From a candidate division WWE3 bacterium RIFOXYC1_FULL_40_10 (GTDB taxonomy: Bacteria > Patescibacteriota > WWE3 > UBA101185 > UBA10185), in NCBI GenBank assembly GCA_001773215.1, contig MEWB01000001.1, positions 322,473-386,472 on the forward strand: a stretch of DNA of 64,000 bases, given 5' to 3'. Shown here one piece after another: positions 44,787 to 63,435 of this stretch; the first letter of the stretch is position 1; each line of letters starts with the position of its first letter. The notes under the pieces were generated by a model that was given only the letters and a program-made list of their open reading frames with translations, was not told the DNA's origin and searched no databases. A program made the position numbers and the translations under genes.

Positions 44787-44901
44787 GCAGCAACAAGAGT
44801 ATTTTAGCAGAATTATTGCATTTTTACTCTATATTGTTGAGGAAGTCTTAAAACTATGAGATAATGGCCCGAGATTTTCTAGCACAGGTATAGGAGAGAA
44901 A

Positions 44902-45691: not shown

Positions 45692-45725
45692 TATCTTTGG
45701 CAAGGTAGCGATAATTCACACTTCG

Positions 45726-47906
45726 CTATCTTGCTTCTCTTCCAAGCCTCAAACTATTTCCAACCACAGATACAGAGCTTAAAGCCATAGCTACACTTGC
45801 CATTACCGGCGATAACAATACTCCTATAAACGGATACAAAATCCCGGCTGCGACTGGAATTCCTAAAATATTATAGCCAAATGCCCAAACTAAGTTCTGC
45901 TTAATAATCGTTAACGTCCTTTTTGAAATCTGTATTGCCTCCAAAAACTTATCCAACGTCCCTTTAACTAATACAATGTCTCCCGCCTCGATAGCAACGT
46001 CGGTACCGGTTCCCATAGCAATACCTATATCGGCTTGAGCAAGAGCAGGTGCATCGTTAATACCATCACCTAACATGGCGATAACACTATTGGGATCACG
46101 GCTTTTAATGTTCTTAATTTCTTGAGCTTTTTGATCAGGTAGAACTTCCGCTATATACTCATCTACTCCCAACTCATGTGCAATAACATCTGCTGTAACT
46201 TTATTATCCCCGGTTAACATTATTGTTTTGATGCCCATGGCATTGAGTTTGTATATAACGTCCTTTGCATCTTCTTTTGGTGTATCAGCGAGGCTGAACA
46301 AACCCGCCAAATTGCCATCCCACGCTATATACGAAACCGTTTGGCCTTTTTGCTGTAACACGGCTGCTTTTTCAGTTATCATTGAATTTGTAACAATCCC
46401 TTGTTGTTCCATAAAGGCCTTAGTGCCAATCCATACCTTTTTCTCATCCACAATTCCAAAGATTCCAAAACCGGGGTAATCTACAAAACCCTCTACAGAT
46501 AAAGCCTCACTAAGTTTCTGTGCTTCATAATAGGCAGTCACTGCCTCGGCGAGCGGGTGTTGGGATAACTTCTCAAGCGAGTATAAAACTTTATTTGAAT
46601 ACTCAGCATCTAGCTTTTCCGAGAATTCTATTACTTGAACCTCAGGCTGGCCTTTTGTTAAAGTGCCGGTTTTATCAAAAACCACATGAGTAATCTTATG
46701 AGCTGTTTCTAATGCCCGGGCGTCCTTTATTAAAATGCCCTTTTTTGCAGACTTACCTGTGCCAACCATTACTGCAGTGGGAGTTGCCAAACCCAAAGCG
46801 CAAGGGCAGGCAATTACCAACACCGTAGTTGCAGTATAAATAGAAAATTGGGCACTTTTCCCCACCGCAAAAAACCAAAAAGAGAAGGAGGCAAGAGCTA
46901 TAGTAATCACGACAGGGACAAAAACTCCGGAAACTTTATCGGCAAGCCGTTGGATAGGAGCTTGTGTAGCTTGAGCCTGCTCGACCATTTTAATAATTTG
47001 AGCAAGAAGGGTATCAGACCCTACCTTTGTTGCTTTAAACTGGAAACTACCGGTTTTATTAAGAGTAGCTCCGATAACAGCGTCTCCAACCTTTTTTGAC
47101 ACCGGCATAGACTCTCCTGTTACCATCGACTCGTCTATATCGGTTGAGCCTTGAGTTATTTCTCCGTCGACAGGCACTTTCTGTCCGGGTTTTACTACTA
47201 CAATATCCCCTACCTTAACTTCTGAAATGGCAATTTTCAATTCCTTGCCATCACGTATTACAACTGCATCCTTAGCCTGAAGCTCAAATAATGCTTTTAT
47301 AGCCCCTTGAGCTTTCTTTTTGGCAGAAGCCTCAAGGTAACGCCCCAACATAATAAAAAATATTATAAAAACCGCGGCTTCAAAAAATACTTCTTCGGTT
47401 TCGAAAATGCTTGGTGCAAAAGTTACAACAGTAGAGTATCCCCAAGCAGTTAGCGTACCCATCGACACTAAAGTGTCCATGTTTGCCGTTTTGGATTTTA
47501 GGGCGATGAATGCACTTTTTAATATGTCCCAACCTCCTATAAAAAGATAAGGTGTGGCAATAATAAATTGGATAAGCGGTGGTCCCGACATCGTGAACAT
47601 GAAATACAAAAAAGGTGCTAGAGCAGCTCCCATAAATATAAGTTTCCCCTTCAATCTGTCCCGGAGCTGCTCCTGATGATGTGTGGTTTCATCCAGAAGC
47701 TTATATGCTCCTACACTGGCAACAGTTTGTTTCAATTTCTCCAGGCTTAAAATTTCATCATCGTAGGTAATATAAAGTTTTTCGGTTGCAAAATTTACAG
47801 TAAATTCATCAGTACCGGGTAATTCTGCTATCGACTTTTGAAGTAAAATTTTGCATGAGGCGCAGTGCATACCAACTATTGGATAGGTTTTTGTTATTTT
47901 GCTCAT
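45726..47906 (-). CDS. copA: copper-translocating P1B-type ATPase
   Basis: N-terminal HMA GMHCASC; CPC in TM6 (CPCALGLATP); DKTGTLT phosphorylation site; GDGINDAPAL hinge. Confidence 0.9.
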   Translation of the reverse strand: MSKITKTYPIVGMHCASCKILLQKSIAELPGTDEFTVNFATEKLYITYDDEILSLEKLKQTVASVGAYKLLDETTHHQEQLRDRLKGKLIFMGAALAPFLYFMFTMSGPPLIQFIIATPYLFIGGWDILKSAFIALKSKTANMDTLVSMGTLTAWGYSTVVTFAPSIFETEEVFFEAAVFIIFFIMLGRYLEASAKKKAQGAIKALFELQAKDAVVIRDGKELKIAISEVKVGDIVVVKPGQKVPVDGEITQGSTDIDESMVTGESMPVSKKVGDAVIGATLNKTGSFQFKATKVGSDTLLAQIIKMVEQAQATQAPIQRLADKVSGVFVPVVITIALASFSFWFFAVGKSAQFSIYTATTVLVIACPCALGLATPTAVMVGTGKSAKKGILIKDARALETAHKITHVVFDKTGTLTKGQPEVQVIEFSEKLDAEYSNKVLYSLEKLSQHPLAEAVTAYYEAQKLSEALSVEGFVDYPGFGIFGIVDEKKVWIGTKAFMEQQGIVTNSMITEKAAVLQQKGQTVSYIAWDGNLAGLFSLADTPKEDAKDVIYKLNAMGIKTIMLTGDNKVTADVIAHELGVDEYIAEVLPDQKAQEIKNIKSRDPNSVIAMLGDGINDAPALAQADIGIAMGTGTDVAIEAGDIVLVKGTLDKFLEAIQISKRTLTIIKQNLVWAFGYNILGIPVAAGILYPFIGVLLSPVMASVAMALSSVSVVGNSLRLGREAR

Positions 47907-49265
47907 TTAGTTAACTACAACCGTTACCGGCTGTACCATTCCCATTGAACAGGTGATTTTATAGGTACCGGGTGTTTTTGGTGTAAATTCAAACACATTC
48001 ATGCCCGGATTAAGCTGTATTATAGATGGGTAAAGACCACGCGCTGATACTGACCTAGAGCAGCCTACGGCTCCTTTGTTATTAAACTCCCATCTAACAG
48101 GGATCCCTGCCTTTAGTGTCACATTTTTAGGAGAATATTCAAACCCACTTGCTTCCATCCTTAAAATTTGGGTACCGCTACTATCAACATCCACCGCTTT
48201 GGTATCGCTGGTATTTACTGCGGTTTTGTCTACGGAGATTAAGTCGCTAAAACTTTTTAAACCCAGTACGTTTAGCTGGGAATTTAGCGTATTTATAGCA
48301 AAAAACACAACTAATGACCCCGCGATTACCCCAAATAGTTTTGACATACCTCTATGGTTATATAGCTTTAGGCTGGAAAAGCTCACAAAGGTTAGCATTG
48401 GGAGTGTTCCCAACGCGAAGGCTAATAATATCAGAGAGCCTGTGATAGGGTTTCCGCTGGCCAAAGCTATTGTTTGTGTAACTAAGGTGAATCCACAAGG
48501 AATAAAGAATGTTCCGGCTCCAATTAAAAATGGCACATACTTGCTTTTGATGGCAAAATCGTTTGAGACTAAGAAGGAAGCGAACTTGGGGGTTTTTATA
48601 TTAAATTTGTTTGCAAAATTAAACCCCATCATTTGTAAACCCAAAACTATCATAACCGCTGATACAGCTAGCGTCAGAAGGGCTGTAATACTAAGTGATA
48701 TCTGGAAGGTTTTGCCAATAAGGCCCAATAAAAATCCGAATGCGGCGTATGAAACCAGCCTGCCTATATTAAATAATACGAATGGAGTGTAACTTTTCTT
48801 TGAGTTAAGCCCGTATAGATCTTGCCACTTCTTGGATAAGGACAATAACAAACCGCCCACCAATGCGGCACAACTCGATACACCGGCTACCATTCCGAAG
48901 ATAAAAAAAGCACCCAATGAGGATGTTGAATTAACATTAAATGCCTTAAGTAATCCGGATCTCTCTACATATAGGAAACCGGTAATCAAAAATACAAATA
49001 TTACAAAAGCCTTAAACAGCTGAGCCTCGGTTATTTTAGGCTCCTCGGGCTTGTTCCTAGAAATCTTGTACCCGAGATCTCGGAGCTTGGAGTTTATACT
49101 ATCAACGTCAATTCGACCATCTAGGGTTACCTCGCATCTTGATAAAGATGCCTCAACTCCTTTGTAACCCTCTTCTTTTAGAGTTTTTTCTATTAGTAAT
49201 TCGCACGAGGGACAGTGCATCCCTTGAACATAGTACGTATTGGTATCTGTGGATTTATTGTTCAC
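47907..49265 (-). CDS. HMA-domain membrane protein with a C-terminal cupredoxin-like/Met-Cys domain, co-transcribed upstream of copA
   Basis: N-terminal GMHCPSCELL HMA motif; ~8 TM helices; C-terminal ~100-aa beta-rich domain with GCSRS and CSMGM. Confidence 0.6.
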   Translation of the reverse strand: MNNKSTDTNTYYVQGMHCPSCELLIEKTLKEEGYKGVEASLSRCEVTLDGRIDVDSINSKLRDLGYKISRNKPEEPKITEAQLFKAFVIFVFLITGFLYVERSGLLKAFNVNSTSSLGAFFIFGMVAGVSSCAALVGGLLLSLSKKWQDLYGLNSKKSYTPFVLFNIGRLVSYAAFGFLLGLIGKTFQISLSITALLTLAVSAVMIVLGLQMMGFNFANKFNIKTPKFASFLVSNDFAIKSKYVPFLIGAGTFFIPCGFTLVTQTIALASGNPITGSLILLAFALGTLPMLTFVSFSSLKLYNHRGMSKLFGVIAGSLVVFFAINTLNSQLNVLGLKSFSDLISVDKTAVNTSDTKAVDVDSSGTQILRMEASGFEYSPKNVTLKAGIPVRWEFNNKGAVGCSRSVSARGLYPSIIQLNPGMNVFEFTPKTPGTYKITCSMGMVQPVTVVVN

Positions 49266-49276
49266 AACATTATTGT

Positions 49277-49292
49277 ATAGATAGTTATCTAT
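49277..49292. promoter_or_regulatory. 7-bp inverted repeat (ATAGATA-gt-TATCTAT) upstream of the cop operon start, operator candidate
   Basis: Palindrome read directly, 12 nt upstream of the HMA-gene start codon. Confidence 0.3.
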
Positions 49293-49364
49293 GTATGCAA
49301 CCCCCTTGTTATTTCTAATTAATTAAATATAATCCATTGAAACAACGTATACAGGAGACTAGAG

Positions 49365-49793
49365 ATGACGCTATTTATAATTGCGGTTTTACTTTCAATC
49401 TTTTTCGGTCCATTCATTGTACCCATGCTTTTACCGGGGAAACTTGTGACAAGAATAGCTGTAAAGCTGTATAAGGCTAATAAACTTGAAAAATGGGCTT
49501 TTCTTTTTGGTAAAGTATATAAGAGTTATAGCCTTAAGGTAGGATCCCGCAACCCTAATTTCAGATTTTTTAGGGATAGGGTTTACGAAATTTGGTTTGA
49601 GAGCGATCACAACTCTTGGTTAAAGACTGAAATCTTCGACGACATCTATCCCACACAGAGTGTGCGAATGTTTAGCGAATGGACTAGAAACCCTCTGGTT
49701 AGGGGCCGTGAGATCAAGTACATCAAGACTCTCTGTATCCGCAGAGTTCCGTGTGCGTCGATGTTCAACCTTTTACTTGAGGTCAAGCTTTGA
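49365..49793 (+). CDS. hypothetical membrane-anchored protein (uncertain; overlaps an alternative frame)
   Basis: ORF track only. Confidence 0.3.
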   Translation: MTLFIIAVLLSIFFGPFIVPMLLPGKLVTRIAVKLYKANKLEKWAFLFGKVYKSYSLKVGSRNPNFRFFRDRVYEIWFESDHNSWLKTEIFDDIYPTQSVRMFSEWTRNPLVRGREIKYIKTLCIRRVPCASMFNLLLEVKL

Positions 49794-49887
49794 CTATAGG
49801 GTAGATTTGTGGTATACTGCCGTCACCGAACTTTCTTCATTAGCCCAAAGGAGGCCTATATGCTCTAACTTTAAAAAGGAGAGCAAA

Positions 49888-50091
49888 ATGAAGAAAAGCA
49901 GTTTCAGAACTATCCACCAAAAGCGCCACGGAAAGAACCACAAGTATAGCTCTACCTGGCCCGATTCAAAAGAACTATCCTTCATAAAGAGTCGGACAAA
50001 TAGGGTTATCAGACATACGAGCACAGATGTGGAAATTCCAAATGGCTGTTGTTATAAAAAACTGGTTAGCCACCTTTTTTACCGAGACTAG
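49888..50091 (+). CDS. 67-aa basic hypothetical protein (MKKSSFRTIHQKRHGKNHKYS...) with a good SD
   Basis: AAAGGAG 6 nt upstream of the ATG; lies in-frame inside track ORF 49660..50091; followed by a terminator. Confidence 0.35.
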   Translation: MKKSSFRTIHQKRHGKNHKYSSTWPDSKELSFIKSRTNRVIRHTSTDVEIPNGCCYKKLVSHLFYRD

Positions 50092-50099
50092 CCAAGGAT

Positions 50100-50133
50100 G
50101 GGAAGTTACATAATATGGACTTCCCTTTTTTTA
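50100..50133 (+). terminator. Rho-independent terminator
   Basis: gggaagttacataatatggacttccc followed by ttttttt. Confidence 0.55.
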
Positions 50134-51378
50134 TCCTAAAACTAGTTCTTTTACTCCGCCAAATGAAATTCGATCTAAAACTTTTTCCTTGGCGCTTAAC
50201 ATACGTGCAGGGGTAATAATAAAATCTCCCCAACGCCCTGTAACCAAATCTATAGCTTGTGCCAGATTTTCTTTTTTAGAAGAATTATCAAATATTCCTA
50301 GTTGAACCTCTGCTTTTTGGGTGAGCATACAGCAAGATACCGCCAAGGTATGTATCGGATATGAATAAGGGGATTTTCGTAAAATTTTGTAAGCGGCTTT
50401 ATAAATATCTTCAATGTTAAACAGAGGTTCCGCTGTTTTTCTTCCCATGTGCCAATGAAAACCATTGTTATACAAAATAGAAACGTGAACGTGCTGTGTC
50501 TTATAACCGGCTCTTCTCATGCGAATAGTAGATTTTTGTACCAGCTTTTGTAGTATGGGCGTAATTTGTTCGATTTTAGATGGTTGCTCTTTAATGGCAA
50601 AGGAATTACCAAAGCTTTTTCGCCCAAAATCGATGTCGTCAACCTCCCATCCGCGTAATCGCAAAAACCATCGGTATCCTACAATCGACTGGAAAGCACG
50701 TTGCAGTACTTCAGCAGGAGCGTTGTAGAAATCTGTAACTGTATGAATGCCTACTTTGTTGAGCCTTACTGCATTATTGTTGGCAATACCGCATAGGTCC
50801 GTTAAATCAAGCTTGGCAAAGATTCCAGAGAAGTTGTTCACATTAATTTCATCCAAACCATCAGGTTTCTTCAAACCGGCCGCAGTTTTAGCTAACAAAC
50901 GATTAGGTGCAATTCCTATTGAAACAGTCAACCACTCCCCTATTTCCGATTTTATACGTTTTTTAACTTCTATTGCGGTATTTATTATGCCGATTTTTTG
51001 AGCCGGAAATCCCTCTAAATCTAAAACAAACTCATCTATAGATTTAGGCTCCAAAACATTAGTATAACGGGCCAATAATTTTCTCAACTGTATGTGAACA
51101 GTTCTGTATTTCCAAGGATCGGGTTCTAAAACGATTAGATCCGGATATAGCATCTTTCCTTCTTGCACCTGCATACCGGTTTTAATCCCAAATCTTTTAG
51201 CCTCAATAGAAGGTGCCAGAATACATCCCCGGGGACTGGTGTAGGCCGCCACCGCAATGGGCTTACCTCGTAAGAAAGGATTAGCCTGCTGTTCTATAGT
51301 GGCAAAACAAGAGTTTAGATCGATATGCATTATCGTAGGCGGTTTGGGGTTAAAAGTTAAATTAGTCGGGTATTCCAT
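50131..51378 (-). CDS. Y-family DNA polymerase (DinB/Pol IV-like, catalytically intact)
   Basis: IDLNSCFATIEQ (Asp/Glu catalytic motif), SIDEFVLDLEG, SIGIAPNRLLAKTAAGLKKPDGL (little-finger/thumb region). Confidence 0.85.
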   Translation of the reverse strand: MEYPTNLTFNPKPPTIMHIDLNSCFATIEQQANPFLRGKPIAVAAYTSPRGCILAPSIEAKRFGIKTGMQVQEGKMLYPDLIVLEPDPWKYRTVHIQLRKLLARYTNVLEPKSIDEFVLDLEGFPAQKIGIINTAIEVKKRIKSEIGEWLTVSIGIAPNRLLAKTAAGLKKPDGLDEINVNNFSGIFAKLDLTDLCGIANNNAVRLNKVGIHTVTDFYNAPAEVLQRAFQSIVGYRWFLRLRGWEVDDIDFGRKSFGNSFAIKEQPSKIEQITPILQKLVQKSTIRMRRAGYKTQHVHVSILYNNGFHWHMGRKTAEPLFNIEDIYKAAYKILRKSPYSYPIHTLAVSCCMLTQKAEVQLGIFDNSSKKENLAQAIDLVTGRWGDFIITPARMLSAKEKVLDRISFGGVKELVLG

Positions 51379-51622
51379 CTGATATTTCCTCCAACTGCCA
51401 GGATAAGTTATCGGTATTTAGCAGCAGTTTAAAAAAAGCGGTATCTGATGAAACTGAAAAAACGTGATATCTGGTTGTTCCTTGTTTAAAGCTATGGCGA
51501 TAGCCCAATTTACTGATTTTATGAGTTTCCCCGTCCCACTTTAAGGCCAAAACGTTGTATTGACCACTTTTATGGTTATAGGCAGAAATTACTGTAACAG
51601 GAGCTTTTATTTTTTGTATCAT
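51362..51622 (-). CDS. small protein co-transcribed with and overlapping the Y-family polymerase (possible YolD/UmuD-like accessory factor)
   Basis: 17-nt overlap with the polymerase start; the operon logic mirrors umuD-umuC / yolD-uvrX; no motif confirmed. Confidence 0.4.
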   Translation of the reverse strand: MIQKIKAPVTVISAYNHKSGQYNVLALKWDGETHKISKLGYRHSFKQGTTRYHVFSVSSDTAFFKLLLNTDNLSWQLEEISDGIPD

Positions 51623-51704
51623 AGTACCGAATAAAACCCGAATAAGTATATTAAATAACTTTAGAGGGAAAATTGCAAGAGGTGTAGAATAGACTTAATA
51701 AAGT

Positions 51705-54700
51705 ATGGACAATAAAAACACGTTTTACACGCTTGGAAGAGACCTGGCTATAAAGAAGAAATTCCCGCCAAAAAGAATTTTCCCGCTTATTAGAAAACAT
51801 AGCGATTTAGACTACAAAACCTTATATTCCCGTTTCGGAAATTTATATGCGTACTTAGTTTCGGAATACGAAAAAAACCCTGAAATAGTGCCCCTGGCCG
51901 CCTCGTGGATACTTGATAACTACTACCTAGTCAGCCAACAGTATGTCTTATTTGAGAAAACCTTTAAGACTAAGTTATTAAAAAAACTACCGTTATCGGA
52001 ATACGATCGGGTATATTACCAGATACACTATATAGCCAAAAAATACCTGGAGGCTACAAATTGTAGTTTTTCCGAAGAAACACTAATCCCATTTTTGAGG
52101 GGGTATCAGAAAATATACCCGTTATCTAGCCTCGAAATATGGATTTTGCCAACTGTGATCAAATTCGAGCAGACCCTAACCCTACTGAATAAAGGCTACG
52201 AGATCAGGGATAAAATTCAGAACGCTAAGTTTGCTGATCAGGTGGTTCAAATAATAGCTAACGACTTAAGCAGAAAGAAAAACCCGGTAAAAAAGATGAA
52301 TAGGATATTAAGAAGCCCGAACATGAACCCACATGTTCTTCTGGCCGTTCTTGAGGACGTAAGGGAATTAGATTATAAGGTAGAAGAAACACTGGCTCTT
52401 GTGGAATCCAAAATTCACGAGGAAGATCTAAACCTCGAGGAATATACCCGTGCAAGTGTGTTAAGAGATATTAATCTAAAACAGACCCTAAGTAACACAG
52501 TTTTGTCAATCAAAAATTTCTTCTATATAAACTGGAACAAGTTCTATAACAAAGTAAGCATTGTTGAAAGTACGCTCAAACTGGATCCGGCAAATATCTA
52601 TGCGACCATGGACGATATAAGCAGAGACAGATACCGCCATATTATTAGCGATCTTAGCAATAATAGCAATTATAGCGAATCAGAAGTTGCCAGAAAGGTT
52701 GTGGAAACTGCCGCAGCCTCGAATATTGATATCCAACAACACGTGGGGTATCACTTGATAGATCATGGTTTTTTTAACTTTGCTGAAAAAATAGGCTATA
52801 AACCAACCTTTAAAGTATTTGTTATTAACTGGCTAAAAAAGTACCCTAACTTGGGTTACATGGGAGGCATCTTCTTAATAACAGTAGCTTTGTCAGCGCT
52901 TTCCTTTTTTACAGCAATAATAGTTTCCCATAACTTGCTTTTCACACTCCTGTTCTCGGTTGGTCAGCTGTTTATAGCTTCTAACCTGGCAACTCTGATT
53001 ATTAACAAGTTATTAGCCTACATTCTTCCTACAGCGCTTCCTCCCAAGATAGAGTTGAAGGACTTTATTCCCGAAAACTGCAAAACCATGATAGTTATTC
53101 CAAGTATGCTTTCGGGAATGGAAAAAGTAGATAAATTAGTATACGAATTGGAGAAAAGATTTCTGTGTAACAAATACAAGAATCTCTTTTATGCTCTTCT
53201 ATGTGACTATAAGGACTCCGACGTTGAAGAATCCGAGGGTGATTATCAACTTTTAGCCTATGCAAGGGAAAAAATAAGGGAGCTAAATGAAAAACATATG
53301 GATGAAGGCTTTAACGTGTTCTATTTTTTCCATAGGAAACGCCAATTTAGCCAAAAGGAAGGCGTTTGGATGGCATGGGAGAGAAAACGCGGAAAATTAC
53401 TTCAGCTGGTTGAATGGCTCACAAAAGAAGGTAACTTTTTCTCGGTTATAGATGGGGATTTAGATAAATTAACTGATATCAAGTATGTAATTACACTAGA
53501 CGAAGACACTATGCTGCCAGCCGATTCTGCTTTAAAGCTCATAGGTGCGATGGAGCACCCTCTTAATCGTCCAGTTGTAAACCCCGATACTAGAATAGTG
53601 ACAAGAGGTTATGGATTTATACAGCCCAGAGTAATACTGATGCCCGAAGCTGAGGGACTTTCGAACTTCACGCACATTTTTGTAACAGAAAGTGGGTATG
53701 ATTCCTATTCTAATGCCACCTCGGATATTTATCAGGATTTGTTTAATCGGTCTATCTTTTGGGGCAAAGGAATATTTGACGTACAGGCTATAAAGGAAAG
53801 CCTTGGAGATAGGTTCCCTGAAAACCGAATTCTTAGCCATGATTTGATTGAAAGCTGTTTTTCCAAAGCGGCCTACCTTTCGGATACAAGCATAATCGAA
53901 GACTACCCTCCAACCTTTAATAGCTATCTAATGCGGGATAGCAGGTGGATACGTGGAGATTGGCAATTAATACCCTGGCTGTTCCCGAATATTATGTCAA
54001 AAGGGAATACATTCGAGAAAAACCCTCTGGATTTCCTCTCGAAATGGTTAATATTCACAAATTTGAGAAGAAGCATGATTTTACCGCTTTTTCTTTTCTC
54101 ATATATGCTAAGCTGGCTTGTAATAAAATCCGACATATTAACAGCCTATCTATCGGTTCTATTCTTTTCCCAAATATTTATTGAGCTAGATGATATTTCA
54201 AGGCCAATTAGCCATAAAATGCCTCTCACTGAAAAACTTATCTTAATAGTTTCCTCAGTTAAAAAGAAAATTACTCTTGTAGGCGCATATTTTGTTGGGC
54301 TTAGTCTGCTAGCCCTAAATAAAACTCAGGCGATACTAATATCGCTATATAGATTGTTAACAAACAAACACCTGCTGGAGTGGACTACATTCGACGAAGC
54401 TCAGCAACTTGTTGATAAAAATGCCAGTCTGCGGAAACAGCTATTGTCTCCATTTACAATCGCAAACTTACTAATAATTTTATATCTGGTGCAATCGGGT
54501 AAGGCTACCGTTATCAACACGGCGATAATTGTTCTATGGTTACTCTCCCCTGCTATATACACGCATATTAGCCGTCCTTTGAAGACAAAAAAACTTCGGG
54601 AGTACATTACGGATAAGGAAAGGATGCTCTCGTACGCCAAAAAAATATGGCTATTTTTTGAGAGTTATACCAACGAGGAAAGTAATCACCTTCCTCCGGA

Positions 54701-57700
54701 TAACCTGCAGCTCATACCTACTACAAAAATCGCATTTAGAACATCTCCAACTAATATTGGTTTTTATCTATTGTCACTGCTATCAGCCTTTGACCTGGGC
54801 ATTGTCACGGCGGATAACTTTGTAGATAGACTTAAAAAGACACTTTCTACGATTGTGAAGCTAAAAAAGTATGAGGGCCAGCTATATAATTGGTATGACG
54901 TAAAAACGCTTGAACCTTTAAACACCTACATATCTACGGCCGATGCCGGAAATTATGTGGCTACGTTAATGCTTTTGGAATCAGCATGCGATGATTTAGT
55001 CAAAAACTCAACGAGTTTGAGTAAGGAAAACATCGAAGAGCTAATCTACGTGCGTAAAGCACTCAAAAGTTTGTATTTGGCCTCAGACTTTACCTTTCTA
55101 TACAACAAGAATATGGAAGTATTTTCGATAGGGTTTAATTCGGATACATGCGAAAAAGACTCCAGCCATTACGATTTTCTAGCATCTGAAGCTAGAATAA
55201 CAAGCTATGTTGCGATAGCTCTTGATCAGGTTGAAACGAAGCATTGGTTTAATATCTCAAGGCCCTATCAAGTAAGAAAAGGAAAGTTCTATCTTATGTC
55301 TTGGGGCGGAACAATGTTCGAATATCTCCTACCCACGTTACTTTTTAACGAAAAAGATAATACACTGCTGGGCCAAACTGCTAAAGAAATTTGTTCACTT
55401 CAAATAAAGTATGGACATGACAATGGTATACCGTGGGGGATTTCTGAATCTAATTTCGATTCGTTCGACCTTGATGCAAATTATCAATATAAAATGATGG
55501 GAGTTCCTAAGCTAGCTCTAAAAAGATACGATACTGAAGATTTAGTCATATCACCTTACTCGTCGTTCCTGGCGCTAATGGTAAATCCTGTAGCTGCTGA
55601 AAAAAACCTCAAACTTCTTGAAAAGCATAAAGCTCTGGGCTTGTACGGTTTCTTTGAGGCTATCCATTTCACCAGATCAAAGAAAGACGCTTTGGAAGAG
55701 CAGCTAGTTCAAATATACACGGCTCATCATCAAGGAATGTGTATGGTAGCAATTAACAACGTCCTAAATGATCGCCTCATGGTGAGAAGGATGCATAGTA
55801 ATAACTACGTCAAATCGTGTGAAATACTTTTGGACGAGCGAATCCCTGAGGTGGCGAACGTAGTGGACCCTAATCAGTACGGCTATGATAAAAGGGTCTC
55901 CTCAGTTAAGATTTACGAAAAGGATCGCGTTAGATTTTCGAGTACCCCAAACACATTGTTTCCTATCGCTCAGATTTTCGGAAACGGAAGATACTCTACT
56001 ATGATTACCAACTCGGGGGCAGGATACAGTAAATTTAAAGACATCTATTTGAATAGGTTTAGTGAAGATCTCTCTCTAGATAATTCCGGCAATCATATTT
56101 ACATTAAAGATGTAGACCTAGACTATTTTTGGTCGGCTACCTATCAACCTACCTTAAAACAAGCTGAAAAATATGAGGCTAAGTTCGATGATGAGCATGC
56201 TGAATTTCATAGGCTAGACAGGAACACAAACACCTCTCTAACAGTACTGGTCCCTCCTGAAAAGAATTTCGAACTAAGAATTCTAACACTTAAAAACTCA
56301 TCAGTATTTCCTAAGGAATACGAAATCACTACGTATAACGAAGTAATGCTGGACGACTTTAAGGCCGGGGTTACTCATCCTGCTTTTAATAAACTGTTTA
56401 TAGAAACAAGTTGCATCGACGAAATACTAATTGCAAAACGACGGAAGAGGAATCAAAAGGACCCGGATAGATATGCGTTCCATTTTGGATACTCCGAAAC
56501 AGAAGACTTCACACTGGATTCTTACGAAACATGCCGATCAAATTTTGTAGGACGAACTAAAACCCCACGAAATCCGGTTATGATGCACAAAGTATTAACC
56601 AACACCCTTGGAGCGGTATTAGATCCGATATTTAGCTTGAGATATAAAGTTAAGCTACTTCCCGGCGAAACGAAAAAGATATATTTCGTATATGGATATG
56701 CTACCAATCCGCATGAGATTAAAGCTACAAAAGACCTTATTCAAGCTAACGGGTCTATAAGTGAATTAAGTTATTTGAACGGGCACTATGTAGAAGCCCG
56801 CAGAACGCATTTGGGAATTACCGTTGGACAGGAGATAACCTTCCAAAGAGTTGCATCCCGACTAATCTACCCGGACTTTCGTCTTCAGGAACAGTCGGAT
56901 TTGCAGCACTACAAAGGAAAAAACGTGTTGTTTAGATTCGGTATATCGGGGGATAACAAAATATTAGTTCTAAAGGTTAATAGCACAAACATAGAGATGC
57001 TCAGGAACATGGTGTTGTTGCATAAATACCTTAGAATACTGCGCTTCCAGATAGACTTAGTGTTTCTAATTGACGAAACGATAAGCTATGAGGAAACGTT
57101 AGAAAGAGATGTAGCTTCCTTAGTTGGTCCAGAAGAAAAGAATTCTGGAATCTTCATCCTGAATGTTGTAAACATGTCTATTGAGGAAAAACATACTTTG
57201 CTGGCTTTAGCCAAAGCTGTATTTGATACTTCTCTTGGATCTCTCGATGAGCAAATTAGCATCGCCACAAGGTACTCGGAACCCGGAGTTGTTAAAGTTC
57301 CACCAACTCGCCGCTCTAATGTGATAGAAAGCATCGGCACAATTAAGGAGGAACTGGATGACTTGGAGTTCTACAATGGCTTGGGCGGTTTTTCTGATAA
57401 CGGCAGAAAGTATTCAATAAACTATAACCCTAATTACCCTACTCCTTTGCCCTGGACAAATGTTATCTCCAACGAAACATTTGGAACTGTTGTGTCAGAA
57501 GCGGGATTGGGGTACACCTGGAACATCAATAGCCAGATAAACAAAATCACTCCATGGTCGAATGATTATGTTTGCGATCCACAAGGCGAGGCGATTTATC
57601 TCAAGGATACACTAACCGGTGCCGTTTTTGGTGCAACTCCTCTGCCGTGCAATGACTCGGAATTCAGTGTAGTGCATGCCCCGGGTTATACGGATTATAT

Positions 57701-59732
57701 CGGTAGGTACGGTTTAGTCGAACACGCACTAAGGGTTTTTGTTGACAGTAATGATCCTGTCAAAATCCTAAAACTAACACTAACCAATAAAAGTAATTAC
57801 GACAAGAAATTTGAAGTTACCTATTACGTGGATTTTGTTTTGGGGGAATACAGCTGTCCCGATCAGGAAAACTTAAATATTCAATTTAACTCAGATAATC
57901 AGAGCATTACCGCCATGAATCCTTCTAACGAAGTTTTTAAGGATAAAACAGCTTTTATGGCAGCTAGTAATGTTTTAGTATCGGCTACTTCCGATCGTAA
58001 AAGGTTTTTTGGGATTGGGGGATCAATCGAATCTCCGCTATGGGTAACAGAAAGCAAGAGGAAAATAGTCGGTTTTAAAGACGTGTCAGATAAATGTGGT
58101 GTGATAACAATAGAGATGTGGGTGCCTAGGAACTCTCATGCATCTGCCGCTTTTATACTAGGCCAAACAGATAATCCCGAAAGTTGCGCTCCCTTAATAG
58201 ATACGTATACTAATTTGGACAATTTAGATCAGAAACTACAAAGAGTTATAGATAGTTGGCAAATACTTCAAAATAAGATTGTAATCCACACCCCTGATAC
58301 TAAACTCAATTACTTAGTAAATAATTGGCTTTTATACCAGGTAGTCTCCTCACGATTATATGGCAGGACATCTTTTTACCAAGCCTCGGGTGCATTCGGC
58401 TTCAGGGATCAGTTACAAGATGTAATGGCATTGGTGCACTCCGACACCGGTAAAATACGCAATCATATTATTTTATGTTGCTCCCATCAGTTTAAAGAGG
58501 GTGATGTACAACATTGGTGGCATAACCCATCAAATGTGGGCGTAAGAACTAGAATTAGTGATGATTTATTATGGCTTCCCTTTGTAGTTAGCTTTTATAT
58601 AGAAAAGACCGGAGATTTTAGTATTTTGTCGGAAACTGCTCCTTACCTTGACATGTCGCAAGTACCCCAGGATAGTGAAAGCTTATACGGGATTCCAACC
58701 ATATCAGAGGAGGTGGGCACTGTTTTAGATCATTGTATTAGGGCAATTGAAAGATCACTTCAATTTGGTGTACACGGCTTGCCATTGATAGGCTCCGGAG
58801 ACTGGAATGACGGTTTAAATAGTGTGGGGGACGAAGGTAAAGGAGAGAGTGTATGGCTTGGGTGGTTTTTGATCGCTGTTCTGGAGAATTTCTCAAAGCT
58901 ACCCGGAGATTTCGATAAAGAAAACTACCTAAAGAAAGCGGAAGAACTAAAAGAGAACATAAACAATACCGGCTGGGACGGTGAGTGGTTCGTTAGGGCT
59001 TTCTACGACGACGGTACCCCAGTGGGTTCTCACGTAAACAACGAGTGCAAGATTGATTCGATAACTCAATCATGGAGTATTATTTCTAAAGCTACAAGTC
59101 TGGATAAGATGTCTCGGGCTATGACTAGCCATAATTTGTATTTAGAGGATAGCAAGCACGGGCTGGTTAATCTACTTACTCCACCTTTTCATGATTCTGA
59201 GCCATTTCCCGGATACATTCAAGGGTATCCTGAGGGTGTTAGAGAAAATGGCGGACACTACACCCACGGAGCAGTTTGGGCGCTAAAAGCATATGCTCTG
59301 CAGAAAAATGCGGATAAAGTGCAGGAACTACTTAACGTATTAAACCCCATCTCCCGATCTTTAGATAAGGATAAAGTAAACGTGTATAAGTCGGAACCTT
59401 ATGTAATGGTAGGAGATATCTACTCAAATAGTCAACACATGGGTAGGGGTGGTTGGAGTTGGTATACGGGATCTGCCGGGTGGATGTACCAGGTATGTAT
59501 TGAGGATGTGTTGGGACTGAAAAAATTCGCTGAGTACTTTACGCTTGAACCGGTTATTCCAAAGAGCTGGAAAGGATTTGATATGCAGTACCATCACAAG
59601 GGTACCAACTACAACATAACTGTCAAAAGAGGCAGTCACAAAGGGTTATCACAAAACGGCAAAGTGCAGGAAGATAAAAAAATCAAGTTAATTGAAAACG
59701 CCGGGGAAGTAATCGTGGAACTAGTTATCTAA
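51705..59732 (+). CDS. cyclic beta-1,2-glucan synthase-like giant protein (2675 aa): N-terminal multi-TM region, GT84-like glycosyltransferase, C-terminal GH94 phosphorylase-like (alpha/alpha)6 domain
   Basis: Central DEDTML DxD with flanking TM helices; C-terminal GH94 signatures RDQLQDV, GSGDWNDGLN, GGWSWYTGSAGWMYQ; size matches NdvB/ChvB/Cgs. Confidence 0.8.
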   Translation: MDNKNTFYTLGRDLAIKKKFPPKRIFPLIRKHSDLDYKTLYSRFGNLYAYLVSEYEKNPEIVPLAASWILDNYYLVSQQYVLFEKTFKTKLLKKLPLSEYDRVYYQIHYIAKKYLEATNCSFSEETLIPFLRGYQKIYPLSSLEIWILPTVIKFEQTLTLLNKGYEIRDKIQNAKFADQVVQIIANDLSRKKNPVKKMNRILRSPNMNPHVLLAVLEDVRELDYKVEETLALVESKIHEEDLNLEEYTRASVLRDINLKQTLSNTVLSIKNFFYINWNKFYNKVSIVESTLKLDPANIYATMDDISRDRYRHIISDLSNNSNYSESEVARKVVETAAASNIDIQQHVGYHLIDHGFFNFAEKIGYKPTFKVFVINWLKKYPNLGYMGGIFLITVALSALSFFTAIIVSHNLLFTLLFSVGQLFIASNLATLIINKLLAYILPTALPPKIELKDFIPENCKTMIVIPSMLSGMEKVDKLVYELEKRFLCNKYKNLFYALLCDYKDSDVEESEGDYQLLAYAREKIRELNEKHMDEGFNVFYFFHRKRQFSQKEGVWMAWERKRGKLLQLVEWLTKEGNFFSVIDGDLDKLTDIKYVITLDEDTMLPADSALKLIGAMEHPLNRPVVNPDTRIVTRGYGFIQPRVILMPEAEGLSNFTHIFVTESGYDSYSNATSDIYQDLFNRSIFWGKGIFDVQAIKESLGDRFPENRILSHDLIESCFSKAAYLSDTSIIEDYPPTFNSYLMRDSRWIRGDWQLIPWLFPNIMSKGNTFEKNPLDFLSKWLIFTNLRRSMILPLFLFSYMLSWLVIKSDILTAYLSVLFFSQIFIELDDISRPISHKMPLTEKLILIVSSVKKKITLVGAYFVGLSLLALNKTQAILISLYRLLTNKHLLEWTTFDEAQQLVDKNASLRKQLLSPFTIANLLIILYLVQSGKATVINTAIIVLWLLSPAIYTHISRPLKTKKLREYITDKERMLSYAKKIWLFFESYTNEESNHLPPDNLQLIPTTKIAFRTSPTNIGFYLLSLLSAFDLGIVTADNFVDRLKKTLSTIVKLKKYEGQLYNWYDVKTLEPLNTYISTADAGNYVATLMLLESACDDLVKNSTSLSKENIEELIYVRKALKSLYLASDFTFLYNKNMEVFSIGFNSDTCEKDSSHYDFLASEARITSYVAIALDQVETKHWFNISRPYQVRKGKFYLMSWGGTMFEYLLPTLLFNEKDNTLLGQTAKEICSLQIKYGHDNGIPWGISESNFDSFDLDANYQYKMMGVPKLALKRYDTEDLVISPYSSFLALMVNPVAAEKNLKLLEKHKALGLYGFFEAIHFTRSKKDALEEQLVQIYTAHHQGMCMVAINNVLNDRLMVRRMHSNNYVKSCEILLDERIPEVANVVDPNQYGYDKRVSSVKIYEKDRVRFSSTPNTLFPIAQIFGNGRYSTMITNSGAGYSKFKDIYLNRFSEDLSLDNSGNHIYIKDVDLDYFWSATYQPTLKQAEKYEAKFDDEHAEFHRLDRNTNTSLTVLVPPEKNFELRILTLKNSSVFPKEYEITTYNEVMLDDFKAGVTHPAFNKLFIETSCIDEILIAKRRKRNQKDPDRYAFHFGYSETEDFTLDSYETCRSNFVGRTKTPRNPVMMHKVLTNTLGAVLDPIFSLRYKVKLLPGETKKIYFVYGYATNPHEIKATKDLIQANGSISELSYLNGHYVEARRTHLGITVGQEITFQRVASRLIYPDFRLQEQSDLQHYKGKNVLFRFGISGDNKILVLKVNSTNIEMLRNMVLLHKYLRILRFQIDLVFLIDETISYEETLERDVASLVGPEEKNSGIFILNVVNMSIEEKHTLLALAKAVFDTSLGSLDEQISIATRYSEPGVVKVPPTRRSNVIESIGTIKEELDDLEFYNGLGGFSDNGRKYSINYNPNYPTPLPWTNVISNETFGTVVSEAGLGYTWNINSQINKITPWSNDYVCDPQGEAIYLKDTLTGAVFGATPLPCNDSEFSVVHAPGYTDYIGRYGLVEHALRVFVDSNDPVKILKLTLTNKSNYDKKFEVTYYVDFVLGEYSCPDQENLNIQFNSDNQSITAMNPSNEVFKDKTAFMAASNVLVSATSDRKRFFGIGGSIESPLWVTESKRKIVGFKDVSDKCGVITIEMWVPRNSHASAAFILGQTDNPESCAPLIDTYTNLDNLDQKLQRVIDSWQILQNKIVIHTPDTKLNYLVNNWLLYQVVSSRLYGRTSFYQASGAFGFRDQLQDVMALVHSDTGKIRNHIILCCSHQFKEGDVQHWWHNPSNVGVRTRISDDLLWLPFVVSFYIEKTGDFSILSETAPYLDMSQVPQDSESLYGIPTISEEVGTVLDHCIRAIERSLQFGVHGLPLIGSGDWNDGLNSVGDEGKGESVWLGWFLIAVLENFSKLPGDFDKENYLKKAEELKENINNTGWDGEWFVRAFYDDGTPVGSHVNNECKIDSITQSWSIISKATSLDKMSRAMTSHNLYLEDSKHGLVNLLTPPFHDSEPFPGYIQGYPEGVRENGGHYTHGAVWALKAYALQKNADKVQELLNVLNPISRSLDKDKVNVYKSEPYVMVGDIYSNSQHMGRGGWSWYTGSAGWMYQVCIEDVLGLKKFAEYFTLEPVIPKSWKGFDMQYHHKGTNYNITVKRGSHKGLSQNGKVQEDKKIKLIENAGEVIVELVI

Positions 59733-59835
59733 TGGCGCCCCCAAGAGGATAATGGTCGAACTCTTTTTGAAAAGCTATATGGCTATTTCAGCAAAAGAGA
59801 TTTGCAAGTTTATACTTCCTAGAGATAAACAAAAA

Positions 59836-59866
59836 CCCCTGTCTGATCGCATATATCACACAGGGG
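59836..59866 (-). terminator. Rho-independent terminator for the minus-strand ORF 59886..60371
   Basis: cccctgtctgatcgcatatatcacacagggg flanked by aaaaa on the plus strand (a T-run on the minus strand). Confidence 0.55.
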
Positions 59867-59885
59867 TTTCGAATCTAGCTATGTA

Positions 59886-60371
59886 CTAAAACAACTGTCC
59901 ACGGCCTTGCCCCCAGCATGCAAAGTAATTTTTCTCAATTTGCCGGGCGGCCTTAAGCTGCTTCTTCGTTAGCAAGCCCAGCTGAGCATTTCCCGGTTGC
60001 TTTTCTTCATACATTGCTTTAAACAGGCTTTCAAAAAGGACATCCCGCAGCTGTTCGAATGTCAACTCGCCTCGATCCTCTGTCTCGTGATCGTACAGGT
60101 CTACGATGAAACTGTAGACGCAGTCACCGATCAACACGAGCCAACTCGTGAGTTCTGTTTCCGAATCGAGAGTAGCGAAAAAGTGCCATATTTTATTCTC
60201 CAAGTGAGAGTAATAATTTCCCCCATCGTACCTCGTGCAAAACCCGCTAATGTGGCCAAACCCTTCGTAGTTGCCATTCTCTGCCTTTTGAGCCCATGCC
60301 AAATAAGCAGAGTCGAAATGACTGCGGCAAGCTACAAGATCGAGATGACTTACTCTAGCATTTGTACTCAT
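59886..60371 (-). CDS. hypothetical protein (islet cargo)
   Basis: ORF track; GC higher than background. Confidence 0.45.
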   Translation of the reverse strand: MSTNARVSHLDLVACRSHFDSAYLAWAQKAENGNYEGFGHISGFCTRYDGGNYYSHLENKIWHFFATLDSETELTSWLVLIGDCVYSFIVDLYDHETEDRGELTFEQLRDVLFESLFKAMYEEKQPGNAQLGLLTKKQLKAARQIEKNYFACWGQGRGQLF

Positions 60372-60504
60372 TTTTTGTCTCCTTTAAGACAATTGTCACC
60401 CTTTGCCACAACAGCATTGGGTTAGAGGAATTACACGACACAACATCGTGTTATATATGTTGATATTATAACAGAAATCAGGATTTGTCAAACTATAGGA
60501 TATA

Positions 60505-60581
60505 TGGCGCCCCCAAGAGGATTCGAACCCCTAACCTCTTCGTCCGAAGCGAAGCGCTCTGATCCGTTGAGCTATGGAGGC
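60505..60581 (-). tRNA. tRNA-Arg (anticodon TCG)
   Basis: GCCTCCA/TGGGGGC acceptor, anticodon stem CTTCG/CGAAG with loop CTTCGGA, TTCGAAT T-loop, GCCA 3' end. Confidence 0.8.
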
Positions 60582-60632: not shown

Positions 60633-61076
60633 GTGAACTTTATAAAATCCCATAAGAACTGGATCATAGCAGGGTACATTTTATTGATGGTTTTCTCCTT
60701 TTTCTATGTACGTAAAGTATTATCAGAGGGCGATTTAAAAGTTACTACCAGAGAAAAATCCAGAGGCTTTGATGAAAAACCAGCAAAAGTAACCTTAATA
60801 ATAGCTGGACCCGGGATAGGAGTTAAATATACAGTAGACATGAAAAACACAGATACTGTTATGGATTTGTTGGATAAAGTTTCCGAGGAACAAGGCCTTG
60901 AATACGACATGACTTCTTATGTTAATAGAACGGAGTTTGAACATATCAACGGAATAAAAGCTCCCGAGGGCTACGTTTGGAAATTGCTTCAAGGTGATTC
61001 GGATCTTACTGAGTATATCCAAAATACCAAACTCCGAGACGAAAATATTTATAGAATAATATTGGTGGCAAATTAG
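60633..61076 (+). CDS. hypothetical membrane-anchored protein
   Basis: ORF track; N-terminal TM. Confidence 0.4.
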   Translation: MNFIKSHKNWIIAGYILLMVFSFFYVRKVLSEGDLKVTTREKSRGFDEKPAKVTLIIAGPGIGVKYTVDMKNTDTVMDLLDKVSEEQGLEYDMTSYVNRTEFEHINGIKAPEGYVWKLLQGDSDLTEYIQNTKLRDENIYRIILVAN

Positions 61077-62261
61077 TTATTCCCACCTTAACGATTCGAT
61101 AGGATCTTTTTTACTGGCTTGGATAGCAGGATACGTTCCGAATACAGCTCCCACAAAAACAGAAAAACCTAGAGAGACAAACACCGCCCACAAGGGAACT
61201 TCCGTCCTTATAAATTTACTGGCAACCTGGGATGCTATCCACCCAAGAAATAATCCTATTACACCTCCTCCTAAACTAAGCAACATGCTTTCGATAATAA
61301 ATTGAAAGCCTATTACAAATGAAGTGGCCCCAACGGCCTTCCTAAGACCAATTTCCTTGATCCTCTCGGTAACAGAAACTAGCATTATGTTCATAATACC
61401 GATACCCCCTACTAGCAACGAAATCCCCGCTACTGCCGCCAAACCAAGTGTAAGTATGTTTAATATGTCCTCGATACTTCTTAAGATATCCTTTTGGGAC
61501 ATTATGCTGAAATCCTCCTTATCTAGGTCAGCCAATAATGCCACTTCTAGTTGCTTTGAAGCAATGTCCATATCTACATTTGGTTTAACCTTCGCAGTAA
61601 TATAGCTAATACTTTCCACTCCTATAGAATCCTTTACAGCGTTAAAAGGAATGTAGACAAGCTCGTCGAAATCGGCTCCTCGTTCCCGTGTTACTCCAAT
61701 CACTTTGTATTTTTTGCTGTCAATTATTACCTTTTCACCAAGTGGATCTCTCTGAGAAAATAGCTCTTTAGCCACAGCAGGGCCTAAAACTATTACCCGC
61801 GCACCGGATTTATCTTCGCTAGTTGAAAAAAATCTCCCCTTAGACATAGCTAAATTTTCAACCCGATCGTACACTGAATAAACTCCGGAAATTGTTGAGA
61901 AAAACTTCCTGTTTTTATACTCCACTGTTTTTCCTACAAATATTAAAGGAGAAACAACATCAATATAATCTGCGGCACCCGACTCGATCAGTCGAACGTG
62001 TTCTTCCCTAATTTTGTTGTCGGTAAATGATAGTGCAGGATCTCCTGCTATCCCCGCTCTCCCTGGTGCAACAAATAATAAGTTTGAGCCTAAATTCTCA
62101 AATTGATCACGAACATAGTTTTCTACGCCCTTAACTAGCGACACCAATGTAACTACCGAAAATACGCCAATCACAACTCCGAGTATAGTTAGAAAAGACC
62201 TAACTTTATTAGAACTTAATGCTTTGGTGGCCGATAAAAATGCTTCCAAAAATTTACTCAT
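61077..62261 (-). CDS. ABC transporter permease, FtsX/MacB family (large periplasmic domain)
   Basis: N-terminal TM FLTILGVVIGVFSVVTLVSL, ~200-aa periplasmic domain, C-terminal 3-TM FtsX domain with VSVTERIKEIGLRKAVGA. Confidence 0.8.
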   Translation of the reverse strand: MSKFLEAFLSATKALSSNKVRSFLTILGVVIGVFSVVTLVSLVKGVENYVRDQFENLGSNLLFVAPGRAGIAGDPALSFTDNKIREEHVRLIESGAADYIDVVSPLIFVGKTVEYKNRKFFSTISGVYSVYDRVENLAMSKGRFFSTSEDKSGARVIVLGPAVAKELFSQRDPLGEKVIIDSKKYKVIGVTRERGADFDELVYIPFNAVKDSIGVESISYITAKVKPNVDMDIASKQLEVALLADLDKEDFSIMSQKDILRSIEDILNILTLGLAAVAGISLLVGGIGIMNIMLVSVTERIKEIGLRKAVGATSFVIGFQFIIESMLLSLGGGVIGLFLGWIASQVASKFIRTEVPLWAVFVSLGFSVFVGAVFGTYPAIQASKKDPIESLRWE

Positions 62262-63435
62262 ATCTTAAAGATTCAATTGGATCCTTTTTTCCTGCAGTAA
62301 TTGCAGGGTAAGTACCAAATAGTACGCCAACTCCAACAGAAAATCCTACTGAGATAATTAAAGCCCACCCAGGGATCTGTGCTCTAATCAAAGACGAAAT
62401 TCCAACAGTCAGTAACCAGCCAAGAGATATGCCGATAACGCCACCCATAAGACTAATAACAACAGCTTCCGATAAAAACTGCACTGCAATATTTGACGGC
62501 GTAGCCCCTAGCGCTTTCCTAAGACCAATCTCTTTAGTCCTTTCGGTAACTGATACCAGCATGATATTCATAATACCGATCCCCCCAACTACTAGTGATA
62601 TAGCTGCAACAGCCCCCAATCCTGCAGATAACACTCCTAGTATGTTGGAAACGGAGCTGAGAATATCTTTTTGCGATAAGACATCGAATTCGTCAGCCTT
62701 TAGATCGTGTAATAAGGCTAATTCAACTTGCCCCATTACGATGTCGATTTTTTGGCCGTCTTTTGCCTTAGTAGCAATCCCGGAAAACTTATCAATCCCC
62801 AGATATGTATCCAGTGATGTGTATGGGACCAAAATTCGATCATCCGAATTAAGTCCCTTCTTGTTGAGTACACCTATTACTTCAAACGCAATCCCTTCAA
62901 CCGTTACCTTCTTGCCTAGCGGGTCTATTTCTCCAAAAAGTTCATCGGAAACCTGAGGCCCGATAACAGTTACTCTAGCTTTGGAGGAAACTTCTCCTTC
63001 AGTAAAATTTCTTCCTGTTTCAGCAGATACATCTGTTATTTGAAACGCCTTTTCGTTCACTCCACTTACCGTTGCGGCAAATTGTTTATTTTTGTACTTT
63101 ACCGTTTTTCCAACTCTAATGCTGGGAGTTACTCCAACAATATAGTTACCTGCGTATTTTTCTATCAACTCAATGTGTTTAGCCCTAAGTTTGTTATTTG
63201 TGAATGTAACAGCAGGATCCTGATTAAACCCGGTTCTACCTGGCGCAACTAAAATCAAATTCGACCCCAAAGCGTTAAACTGGTCGGTGACGAAATTCTC
63301 CACCCCTTTAACTAAAGATACCAGGGAAATAACTGCAAAAACTCCTATGATTACACCCAGCATGGTTAAAAACGAACGCGTTTTATTCAAACTTAGTGAA
63401 ATAAAAGCGGCTTTTACTGCCTCAAGTATATTCAT
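62254..63435 (-). CDS. ABC transporter permease, FtsX/MacB family (paralog of the previous one)
   Basis: Same architecture and motifs (VSVTERTKEIGLRKALGA); overlaps the neighbour by 8 nt. Confidence 0.8.
   Translation of the reverse strand: MNILEAVKAAFISLSLNKTRSFLTMLGVIIGVFAVISLVSLVKGVENFVTDQFNALGSNLILVAPGRTGFNQDPAVTFTNNKLRAKHIELIEKYAGNYIVGVTPSIRVGKTVKYKNKQFAATVSGVNEKAFQITDVSAETGRNFTEGEVSSKARVTVIGPQVSDELFGEIDPLGKKVTVEGIAFEVIGVLNKKGLNSDDRILVPYTSLDTYLGIDKFSGIATKAKDGQKIDIVMGQVELALLHDLKADEFDVLSQKDILSSVSNILGVLSAGLGAVAAISLVVGGIGIMNIMLVSVTERTKEIGLRKALGATPSNIAVQFLSEAVVISLMGGVIGISLGWLLTVGISSLIRAQIPGWALIISVGFSVGVGVLFGTYPAITAGKKDPIESLRYE

Follow-up and report, generated by a model that had tools for sequence, protein, structure and literature searches.

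A 754-bp integrase-less islet between tRNA-Arg-derived direct repeats in a WWE3 genome, probably a decayed integrative element

The 3' end of the tRNA-Arg(TCG) gene studied here, from a bacterium of the candidate phyla radiation (CPR; WWE3), is followed by an islet of 754 bp (59751-60504) that contains one credible open reading frame (ORF) and is bracketed by an exact direct repeat of 19 bp (59732-59750 and 60504-60522). All positions refer to the window, by which we mean the whole 64-kb stretch of DNA that was analyzed. We consider it likely that the islet is a foreign element that integrated site-specifically at the 3' end of tRNA-Arg and has decayed to attL, cargo, and attR. Its features, in the order of their coordinates, are as follows.

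59732-59750, no strand assigned: distal direct repeat, attR-like; an exact 19-bp copy of the tRNA-Arg 3' end that abuts the stop codon of a GH94-type gene
59751-59831, no strand assigned: noncoding left arm between the distal repeat and the terminator; unlike the arm motif of the serine recombinase elements described below
59832-59870, minus strand: intrinsic terminator hairpin of the 161-amino-acid gene, with a stem of 11+4 bp and then a U-run
59886-60371, minus strand: ORF of 161 amino acids, the sole cargo, from a rare uncharacterized family
60375-60385, minus strand: Shine-Dalgarno region, AAGGAG about 8 nt upstream of the ATG, read from the sequence
60463-60491, minus strand: σ70-like promoter, TTGACA-17-TAATAT, with 10 of 12 consensus positions
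60504-60522, no strand assigned: proximal direct repeat, attL-like; 18 nt are the intact 3' end of tRNA-Arg, plus one flanking base
60505-60581, minus strand: tRNA-Arg(TCG), the integration target, identified with ARAGORN and Rfam; its 5'-side neighbors are common to the related loci L067, L068, and L069

A preliminary description of this DNA had placed an 18-bp direct repeat on both sides of a 754-bp islet at tRNA-Arg, with the upstream copy at the stop codon of a gene of 2,675 amino acids. Both statements hold, with the refinements that exact identity extends over 19 bp and that the distal copy starts within the stop codon itself, since the last A of the TAA of this GH94-type gene is the first base of the repeat. 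The 18-mer, TGGCGCCCCCAAGAGGAT, has two exact matches in the window (59733 and 60505), and allowing three mismatches adds none, compared with an expectation of 0.05 from shuffled sequences (none of 100 shuffles contained two matches); a search that allowed up to five mismatches gave no third copy of the repeat anywhere in the window. ARAGORN and the Rfam tRNA model (64.7 bits) both predict tRNA-Arg(TCG), of which the copy at 60505 forms the 3' end. Read in the sense of the tRNA, the repeat is composed of the last two bases of the T-loop (AT), CCTCT of the T-stem, TGGGGGC of the acceptor, the discriminator G, CCA, and one flanking base. Gapped local alignment revealed no likeness past either edge of the repeat, so that both edges are sharp. 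Anchored at the tRNA terminus and identical at 19 of 19 bp, the repeat has its distal copy 3' of the tRNA and in the same orientation. This arrangement is the one expected of tRNA-targeting elements, which are flanked on that side by a direct copy of the end of the tRNA gene. In this respect the distal 19-mer is like the displaced 3' tRNA fragments that integrative elements leave behind (PMC9897764; Islander/TIGER, PMC7192596).

The islet holds a complete expression unit on the minus strand, consisting of promoter, Shine-Dalgarno region, 161-amino-acid ORF, and terminator. The promoter begins 13 nt past the 3' end of the tRNA and is directed into the ORF. The terminator hairpin has a predicted ΔG of -25.2 kcal/mol (z = -4.0; 0 of 200 shuffles were as stable) and is situated ~100 nt past the stop codon of the convergent GH94 gene, so that this one hairpin could serve both genes. 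Its right arm and tail (59864-59875, GGGTTTCGAATC) match the T-arm/T-loop of tRNA-Arg at 11 of 12 positions in inverted orientation; we estimate that about 0.2 such matches are expected, which is close to chance, and the match is probably meaningless. No recombinase is encoded inside the islet, which therefore lacks the integrase expected of tRNA-targeting elements. The preliminary description had accordingly called the islet integrase-less, and it had reported the minus-strand ORF with its own terminator hairpin as well as a GC content above the background; each of these observations was reproduced, the single credible ORF having no recombinase domain and the GC excess being modest (42.8% in the islet versus 39.9% in the window). 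Among the 55 ORFs of 120 amino acids or more in the window, the cargo gene ranks fourth in GC content (47.1%) and first in GC content at the third codon position (GC3; 52.5%, z = 2.8). GC3 is the stronger signal of the two, as a GC content of 47% falls inside the range of a few native genes. The composition of the islet thus differs from that of its host.

Similar repeats recur at other tRNAs. Nine tRNA genes lie in the window, all of them on the minus strand, and three of the nine have an exact direct repeat on their 3' side that is anchored at the 3' terminus.

tRNA-Leu(CAG): repeat of 21 nt, 110 bp from the tRNA copy to the distal copy
tRNA-Lys(CTT): repeat of 21 nt, 4,989 bp from the tRNA copy to the distal copy
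tRNA-Arg(TCG): repeat of 18 nt, 772 bp from the tRNA copy to the distal copy

The element at tRNA-Lys(CTT) spans 5 kb (39723-44786) with 21-nt repeats at either end. Its last gene (42909-44717) encodes a large serine recombinase of 602 amino acids with Resolvase, Recombinase, and Zn_ribbon_recom domains, and the TGA stop of this gene falls inside the 3' end of tRNA-Lys; the cargo includes a cupin and two glyoxalase-family proteins. No relatives of the recombinase were found in IMG/VR. At tRNA-Leu(CAG), a stub of 88 bp (37317-37404; 37295-37426 with the repeats) lies between two exact copies (21/22 nt) of the tRNA 3' end. A 19-nt arm, GGTCACCGGTTCTCGCCTG, opens this stub and also adjoins the distal repeat of the tRNA-Lys element, and these two copies, at 37316 and 39743, are the only ones in the window. 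Stub and element have 66 nt in common at 80% identity, arm included. The genome demonstrably holds an intact tRNA-targeting element together with a tiny stub of a related one, the stub being what a near-total deletion left or, alternatively, a minimal att-only element.

The preliminary description had located the point of divergence at tRNA-Arg in the T-loop, within 3 nt of the breakpoint used by the other two elements, and this is where we find it: with a slash marking the start of the repeat, the junctions read TTCGA/AT for Arg, TT/CGAAT for Lys, and TT/CAAGT for Leu, which puts the Arg breakpoint 3 nt further 3'. Its further proposal was a recombinase acting on the islet in trans, with the serine recombinase at 42909 as an example; for this enzyme we find no support. 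The arm GGTCACCGGTTCTCGCCTG that marks the serine recombinase elements is absent from the Arg islet, including the region around 59751, with up to three mismatches; the repeat measures 18 to 19 nt, of which 18 nt belong to the tRNA, versus the 21 nt that start after the TT of the T-loop in the other two elements; and the breakpoint differs. The absence of the arm motif and the shifted breakpoint indicate that the Arg islet is the scar of a different element than those at tRNA-Lys and tRNA-Leu. An arm AATGGTCGAACTC at another repeat with a recombinase beside it would point to a cognate enzyme. A repeat of another kind was observed at tRNA-Gln(TTG), where an exact 31-nt duplication (29046-29076 and 29140-29170, 94 bp apart) comprises the first 15 nt of the tRNA and 16 nt of upstream flank; this is a 5'-side fragment, unlike the 3'-side scars.

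In the course of events that we favor, an integrative element would have entered the 3' end of tRNA-Arg(TCG) by a crossover in or beside the T-loop and would have brought its own copy of the last 18 to 19 nt of the tRNA. Integration would thereby have rebuilt an intact tRNA (60505-60581) and displaced the original 3' end to 59732-59750. The recombinase and most other genes would later have been deleted, leaving attL, one self-contained transcription unit, and attR. We infer the integration event, the later deletion, and the retention of the 161-amino-acid gene as useful cargo from this arrangement. That the islet is a remnant, as had been suggested at the outset, is well supported by the tRNA-derived repeat on the 3' side, the atypical cargo gene, the absence of a recombinase, and the two like scars in the window, and the 88-bp remnant at tRNA-Leu indicates that decay to tiny stubs bounded by repeats does occur in this genome. 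One point against a decayed element is that in the ancestral state the GH94 stop would have touched the 3' end of the tRNA without a spacer, which is a tight arrangement; the serine recombinase ORF that ends inside tRNA-Lys provides a parallel. The predicted empty attB site consists of GAACTAGTTATCTAA on the side of the GH94 stop, TGGCGCCCCCAAGAGGAT, and TCGAACCCCTAACC of the tRNA body, and the predicted circular attP site consists of CAAACTATAGGATATA, TGGCGCCCCCAAGAGGAT, and AATGGTCGAACTCTTTTTG.

Public data contain 23 to 24 contigs (ENA, JGI, and Logan) with an identical ORF or GH94 protein, and the two always occur together. Among the contigs retrieved as DNA, the only departure from 100% identity to the window is in L076, which has two single-base indels in a MacB permease gene. 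Absence of the distal repeat copy from independent assemblies had been named beforehand as an observation that would speak against the islet; the copy is present, and three assembly pipelines (ENA, JGI, and Logan contigs) give the distal junction with 100% identity. In the NCBI scaffold MEWH01000001.1 (L002), 27 Ns stand in place of the 117 bp (59641-59757) around the distal repeat, a stretch that is continuous in the MEGAHIT, JGI, and Logan contigs; the gap could stem from heterogeneity at the junction or from a local assembly problem, and this scaffold speaks neither for nor against the distal copy. Since all public assemblies represent one strain, gain of the islet cannot be polarized against its loss. 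The empty junction (GH94 stop, 18-mer, and tRNA body) gave 0 matches in metagenome and genome collections, where the organism is apparently absent, so that this search had low power: the scan with the 18-mer missed even the locus of the window itself, which shows that the organism is not in that collection and makes the negative result for the empty site a weak one. TGGCGCCCCCAAGAGGAT alone occurs at 19 metagenome loci, none of which has the flanks found in the window. Neither a circular junction nor a second copy of the islet was found in the collections searched, and nothing in IMG/VR or in the phage and plasmid collections combined an integrase with the att or cargo of the islet, as a parent element would. 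The single match of TGGCGCCCCCAAGAGGAT in IMG/VR is a phage tRNA-Arg(TCT) within a tRNA array and is irrelevant here; it lies on a 59-kb viral contig (L014, IMGVR_UViG_3300010885_034940) with at least nine tRNA genes in the array, and the 18-nt 3' end of this tRNA-Arg(TCT) is the same as that of the WWE3 tRNA-Arg(TCG).

Three of the 19 metagenome loci (L067, L068, and L069) have the same tRNA-Arg(TCG) and the same 5'-side neighbors as the window, namely, a homolog of a 147-amino-acid protein (60633-61076) followed by MacB-type permeases; a fourth locus (L059) contains only the 3' part of tRNA-Arg(TCG) and has its 3' flank in common with L067. The MacB-type permease pair is kept beside tRNA-Arg in relatives, and in the window it consists of two tandem paralogs of 394 and 393 amino acids (61077-63435), which have a stretch of 122 nt at 76% identity. 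On the other side of the tRNA, the 3' flanks differ among the related loci, and none contains the 161-amino-acid gene or a second repeat. The ORF is thus not syntenic beside tRNA-Arg in relatives; conserved synteny had been named beforehand as evidence against an islet. Short similarities between the islet ends and the flanks of L069 and L068 did not exceed those of shuffled controls and were discarded. Because the 3' flanks of tRNA-Arg are unrelated in relatives, the site is variable in this lineage. This variability is consistent with repeated integration, and one relative does not fix the direction of change.

The 3' side of tRNA-Arg differs from its relatives also at larger range. In the window, 15.7 kb (44787-60504) separate tRNA-Arg(TCG) from tRNA-Lys(CTT), and this interval contains the GH94 gene, a Y-family polymerase, a DsbD/cupredoxin protein, and a copper P-type ATPase. 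In L059 (1-1909), tRNA-Arg and tRNA-Lys(CTT) lie in the same orientation only 1.8 kb apart and enclose unrelated genes (by our reading, a NUDIX-like protein, a 138-amino-acid unassigned protein, and exonuclease III), none of which was found in the window. The GH94 gene (51705-59732; 2,675 amino acids) is of the cyclic β-1,2-glucan synthase type. Matches of its C-terminal 600 amino acids in GTDB species-representative genomes reach at most 47% identity and belong to Acidobacteria, Clostridia, and Bdellovibrio; no CPR relative and no syntenic relative was found in this search, which used few peptide words and could miss CPR relatives. Judging from these distant matches, horizontal acquisition of the gene is possible, although its composition resembles that of native genes.

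These observations allow a reading in which the distal 19-mer is the former tRNA-proximal att site of an older, larger island with the GH94, Y-family polymerase, and copper resistance genes, which was pushed outward when the islet came later, so that the 15.7 kb between tRNA-Arg and tRNA-Lys would be a composite island and not host flank. The contrast between 15.7 kb and 1.8 kb in L059, whose genes are absent from the window, speaks in its favor, as do the exact coincidence of the GH94 end with the repeat, which resembles that of the recombinase ORF at tRNA-Lys, and the low identity of the GH94 matches, all from other phyla. The last point is tempered by the relatives that a search on few peptide words could miss. 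Against this reading, the window contains no third copy of the repeat, Pfam models detected no recombinase between 44.8 and 59.7 kb, and the GH94 gene is outside the 14 ORFs of highest GC content in the window (all at least 40.6%) and so does not look recent. We regard this reading as unlikely, and it is in any case compatible with a decayed element, to which it adds without replacing it. Another possibility, which we hold to be rather unlikely, is that the 773-bp unit formed by the islet and one repeat is an active satellite or mini-cassette still moved by a recombinase encoded elsewhere, for example the 602-amino-acid serine recombinase (42909-44717) or an integrase specific for tRNA-Arg that was not seen. 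Both repeats are perfect, a recombinase that cuts in tRNA T-loops is encoded 15 kb away, the gap of the NCBI scaffold coincides exactly with the distal junction and could mean heterogeneity in the population, and in Dehalococcoides, integrase-less islands beside serine recombinase islands have been proposed to be mobilizable (PMC3146451). However, the arm motif of the Lys and Leu elements is missing even when three mismatches are tolerated, the breakpoint is 3 nt off at tRNA 3' ends of different sequence, no second copy, circular junction, or empty site turned up in the collections searched, and the occupied state is found in all of more than 20 assemblies. As for a cognate integrase, inspection covered the 64 kb of the window out of a genome of ~0.9 Mb.

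A further reading would dispense with a mobile element altogether, the 19-mer having arisen by partial tRNA duplication, template switching, chance, or misassembly next to a native ORF. Integrase, empty site, and parent element were indeed all not found, and the GC content of the ORF is inside the range of some native genes of the window, but chance is excluded by the shuffled expectation, and the junction is the same from three assembly pipelines. In addition, two other tRNA scars in the window show the same kind of terminus-anchored 3'-side direct repeat, one of them together with a recombinase, the GC3 of the ORF is the maximum of the window, and the flank is nonsyntenic in relatives; we therefore judge a native origin to be very improbable. 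Going beyond the islet itself, the three inserts of 88 bp (Leu), 754 bp (Arg), and 5 kb (Lys), with copies of 18 to 21 nt of the tRNA end and breaks in the T-loop, could be taken to mean that this CPR lineage runs a tRNA T-loop "cassette" system, in which recombinases acting in trans would move minimal units, each of one gene with a promoter and terminator of its own, from tRNA to tRNA and the 161-amino-acid family would be typical cargo. We consider this whole reading, the role of the family included, to be distinctly unlikely, and the decay of an integrated element is the account that we retain for the islet.

A decayed element of this kind has known counterparts. Elements that have decayed but keep attL and attR are known as CIMEs; they are regarded as decay products of integrated elements and can sit in tandem with others (PMC5704250). 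Like the Arg islet, the CIMEs of Streptococcus and other Firmicutes have attL and attR sites from the 3' end of a target gene and are without integration and transfer genes (PMC5704250). In the Arg islet, integration and transfer genes are lost and the identity blocks of attL and attR are intact, a statement that concerns the identity blocks and not the arms, and on these grounds the islet would be equivalent to a cis-mobilizable element as defined. CIMEs, however, are defined by descent from integrative conjugative or mobilizable elements (ICEs or IMEs) and their cis-mobilization has been shown experimentally, whereas the Arg islet is known from its sequence and searches gave no parent element; it also differs in its CPR (WWE3) host and its very small size, with one gene in 754 bp.

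The ssrA islands of Dehalococcoides, likewise a small-genome groundwater bacterium, have repeats of 20 bp with the insertion point in the T-loop, and 15 of them have no integration module (PMC3146451). They resemble the present case in that a tRNA-like 3' end of ~20 bp is repeated and integrase-less islands occur beside islands with a large serine recombinase, and the tRNA-Lys element parallels them by using a serine, not a tyrosine, recombinase at a tRNA T-loop in a CPR genome. They differ in having a common motif by the repeat and in forming tandem arrays at one locus (PMC3146451), whereas the Arg islet is without the arm of the Lys element and lies at a different tRNA. The microcin H47 island of Escherichia coli is also small, has short direct repeats, and lacks a site-specific recombinase of its own, but it measures ~13 kb, lies outside tRNA genes, and was shown to be excised between its repeats independently of RecA (PMC3191183, PMC5426353). 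Integron gene cassettes are similar in size (0.5 to 1 kb), in their single ORF, and in depending on a recombinase encoded elsewhere. The islet was rejected as an integron cassette, as it has no attC site (no R''/L''-L'/R' inverted repeats with GTTRRRY) and its only strong hairpin is terminator-like; it is further unlike such cassettes in having its own promoter and terminator and boundaries of tRNA sequence.

Integration scars as a phenomenon are already known, and what is new here is an instance in an understudied phylum with an uncharacterized protein family. To our knowledge, mobile elements have been little described in CPR bacteria, and the window documents turnover of integrative elements at several tRNA genes in a CPR (WWE3) genome of ~0.9 Mb. 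Such islets would be missed by island finders that depend on an integrase, and the standard callers, which need an integrase by the tRNA (PMC7192596), would miss the Arg islet.

In NCBI the cargo gene carries the annotation hypothetical protein. When 1.84 billion representative proteins were scanned exhaustively with HMMER, ten homologs with 26 to 38% identity emerged, and since these have invariant positions in common, the ORF is a real gene. Invariant in the family are A25, F44, D49-G50-G51, H63, and Q155-G156, while H18, Y23, and the C-terminal WGQG..F are nearly so; the conserved motifs are ACRSHF, DGG, WH, and WGQG. The ORF had no match in Pfam, NCBIfam, PHROGs, or PADLOC, and for all 11 family members nothing significant was found in Pfam and PADLOC. 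A profile search against PDB sequences gave only hits with E values above 0.5, and the protein, which is modeled with confidence, had no fold relative and a fold unrelated to recombinases. No match came from tblastn against phages and plasmids or from searching IMG/VR for the family. Given two conserved histidines and one aspartate, a small enzyme or a metal-binding protein may be imagined, which is only a guess. In nine look-ups of homolog contexts, no tRNA and no integrase was seen nearby; most of these contigs are shorter than 4 kb, hence uninformative on this point. The family is rare and patchily distributed, which speaks for a mobile origin of the gene. Its occurrence in the islet marks it as cargo of a mobile element, and a functional study may be merited. 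The homologs lie on short metagenome contigs, several of which come from the same ENA/SRA samples as the contigs of this organism.
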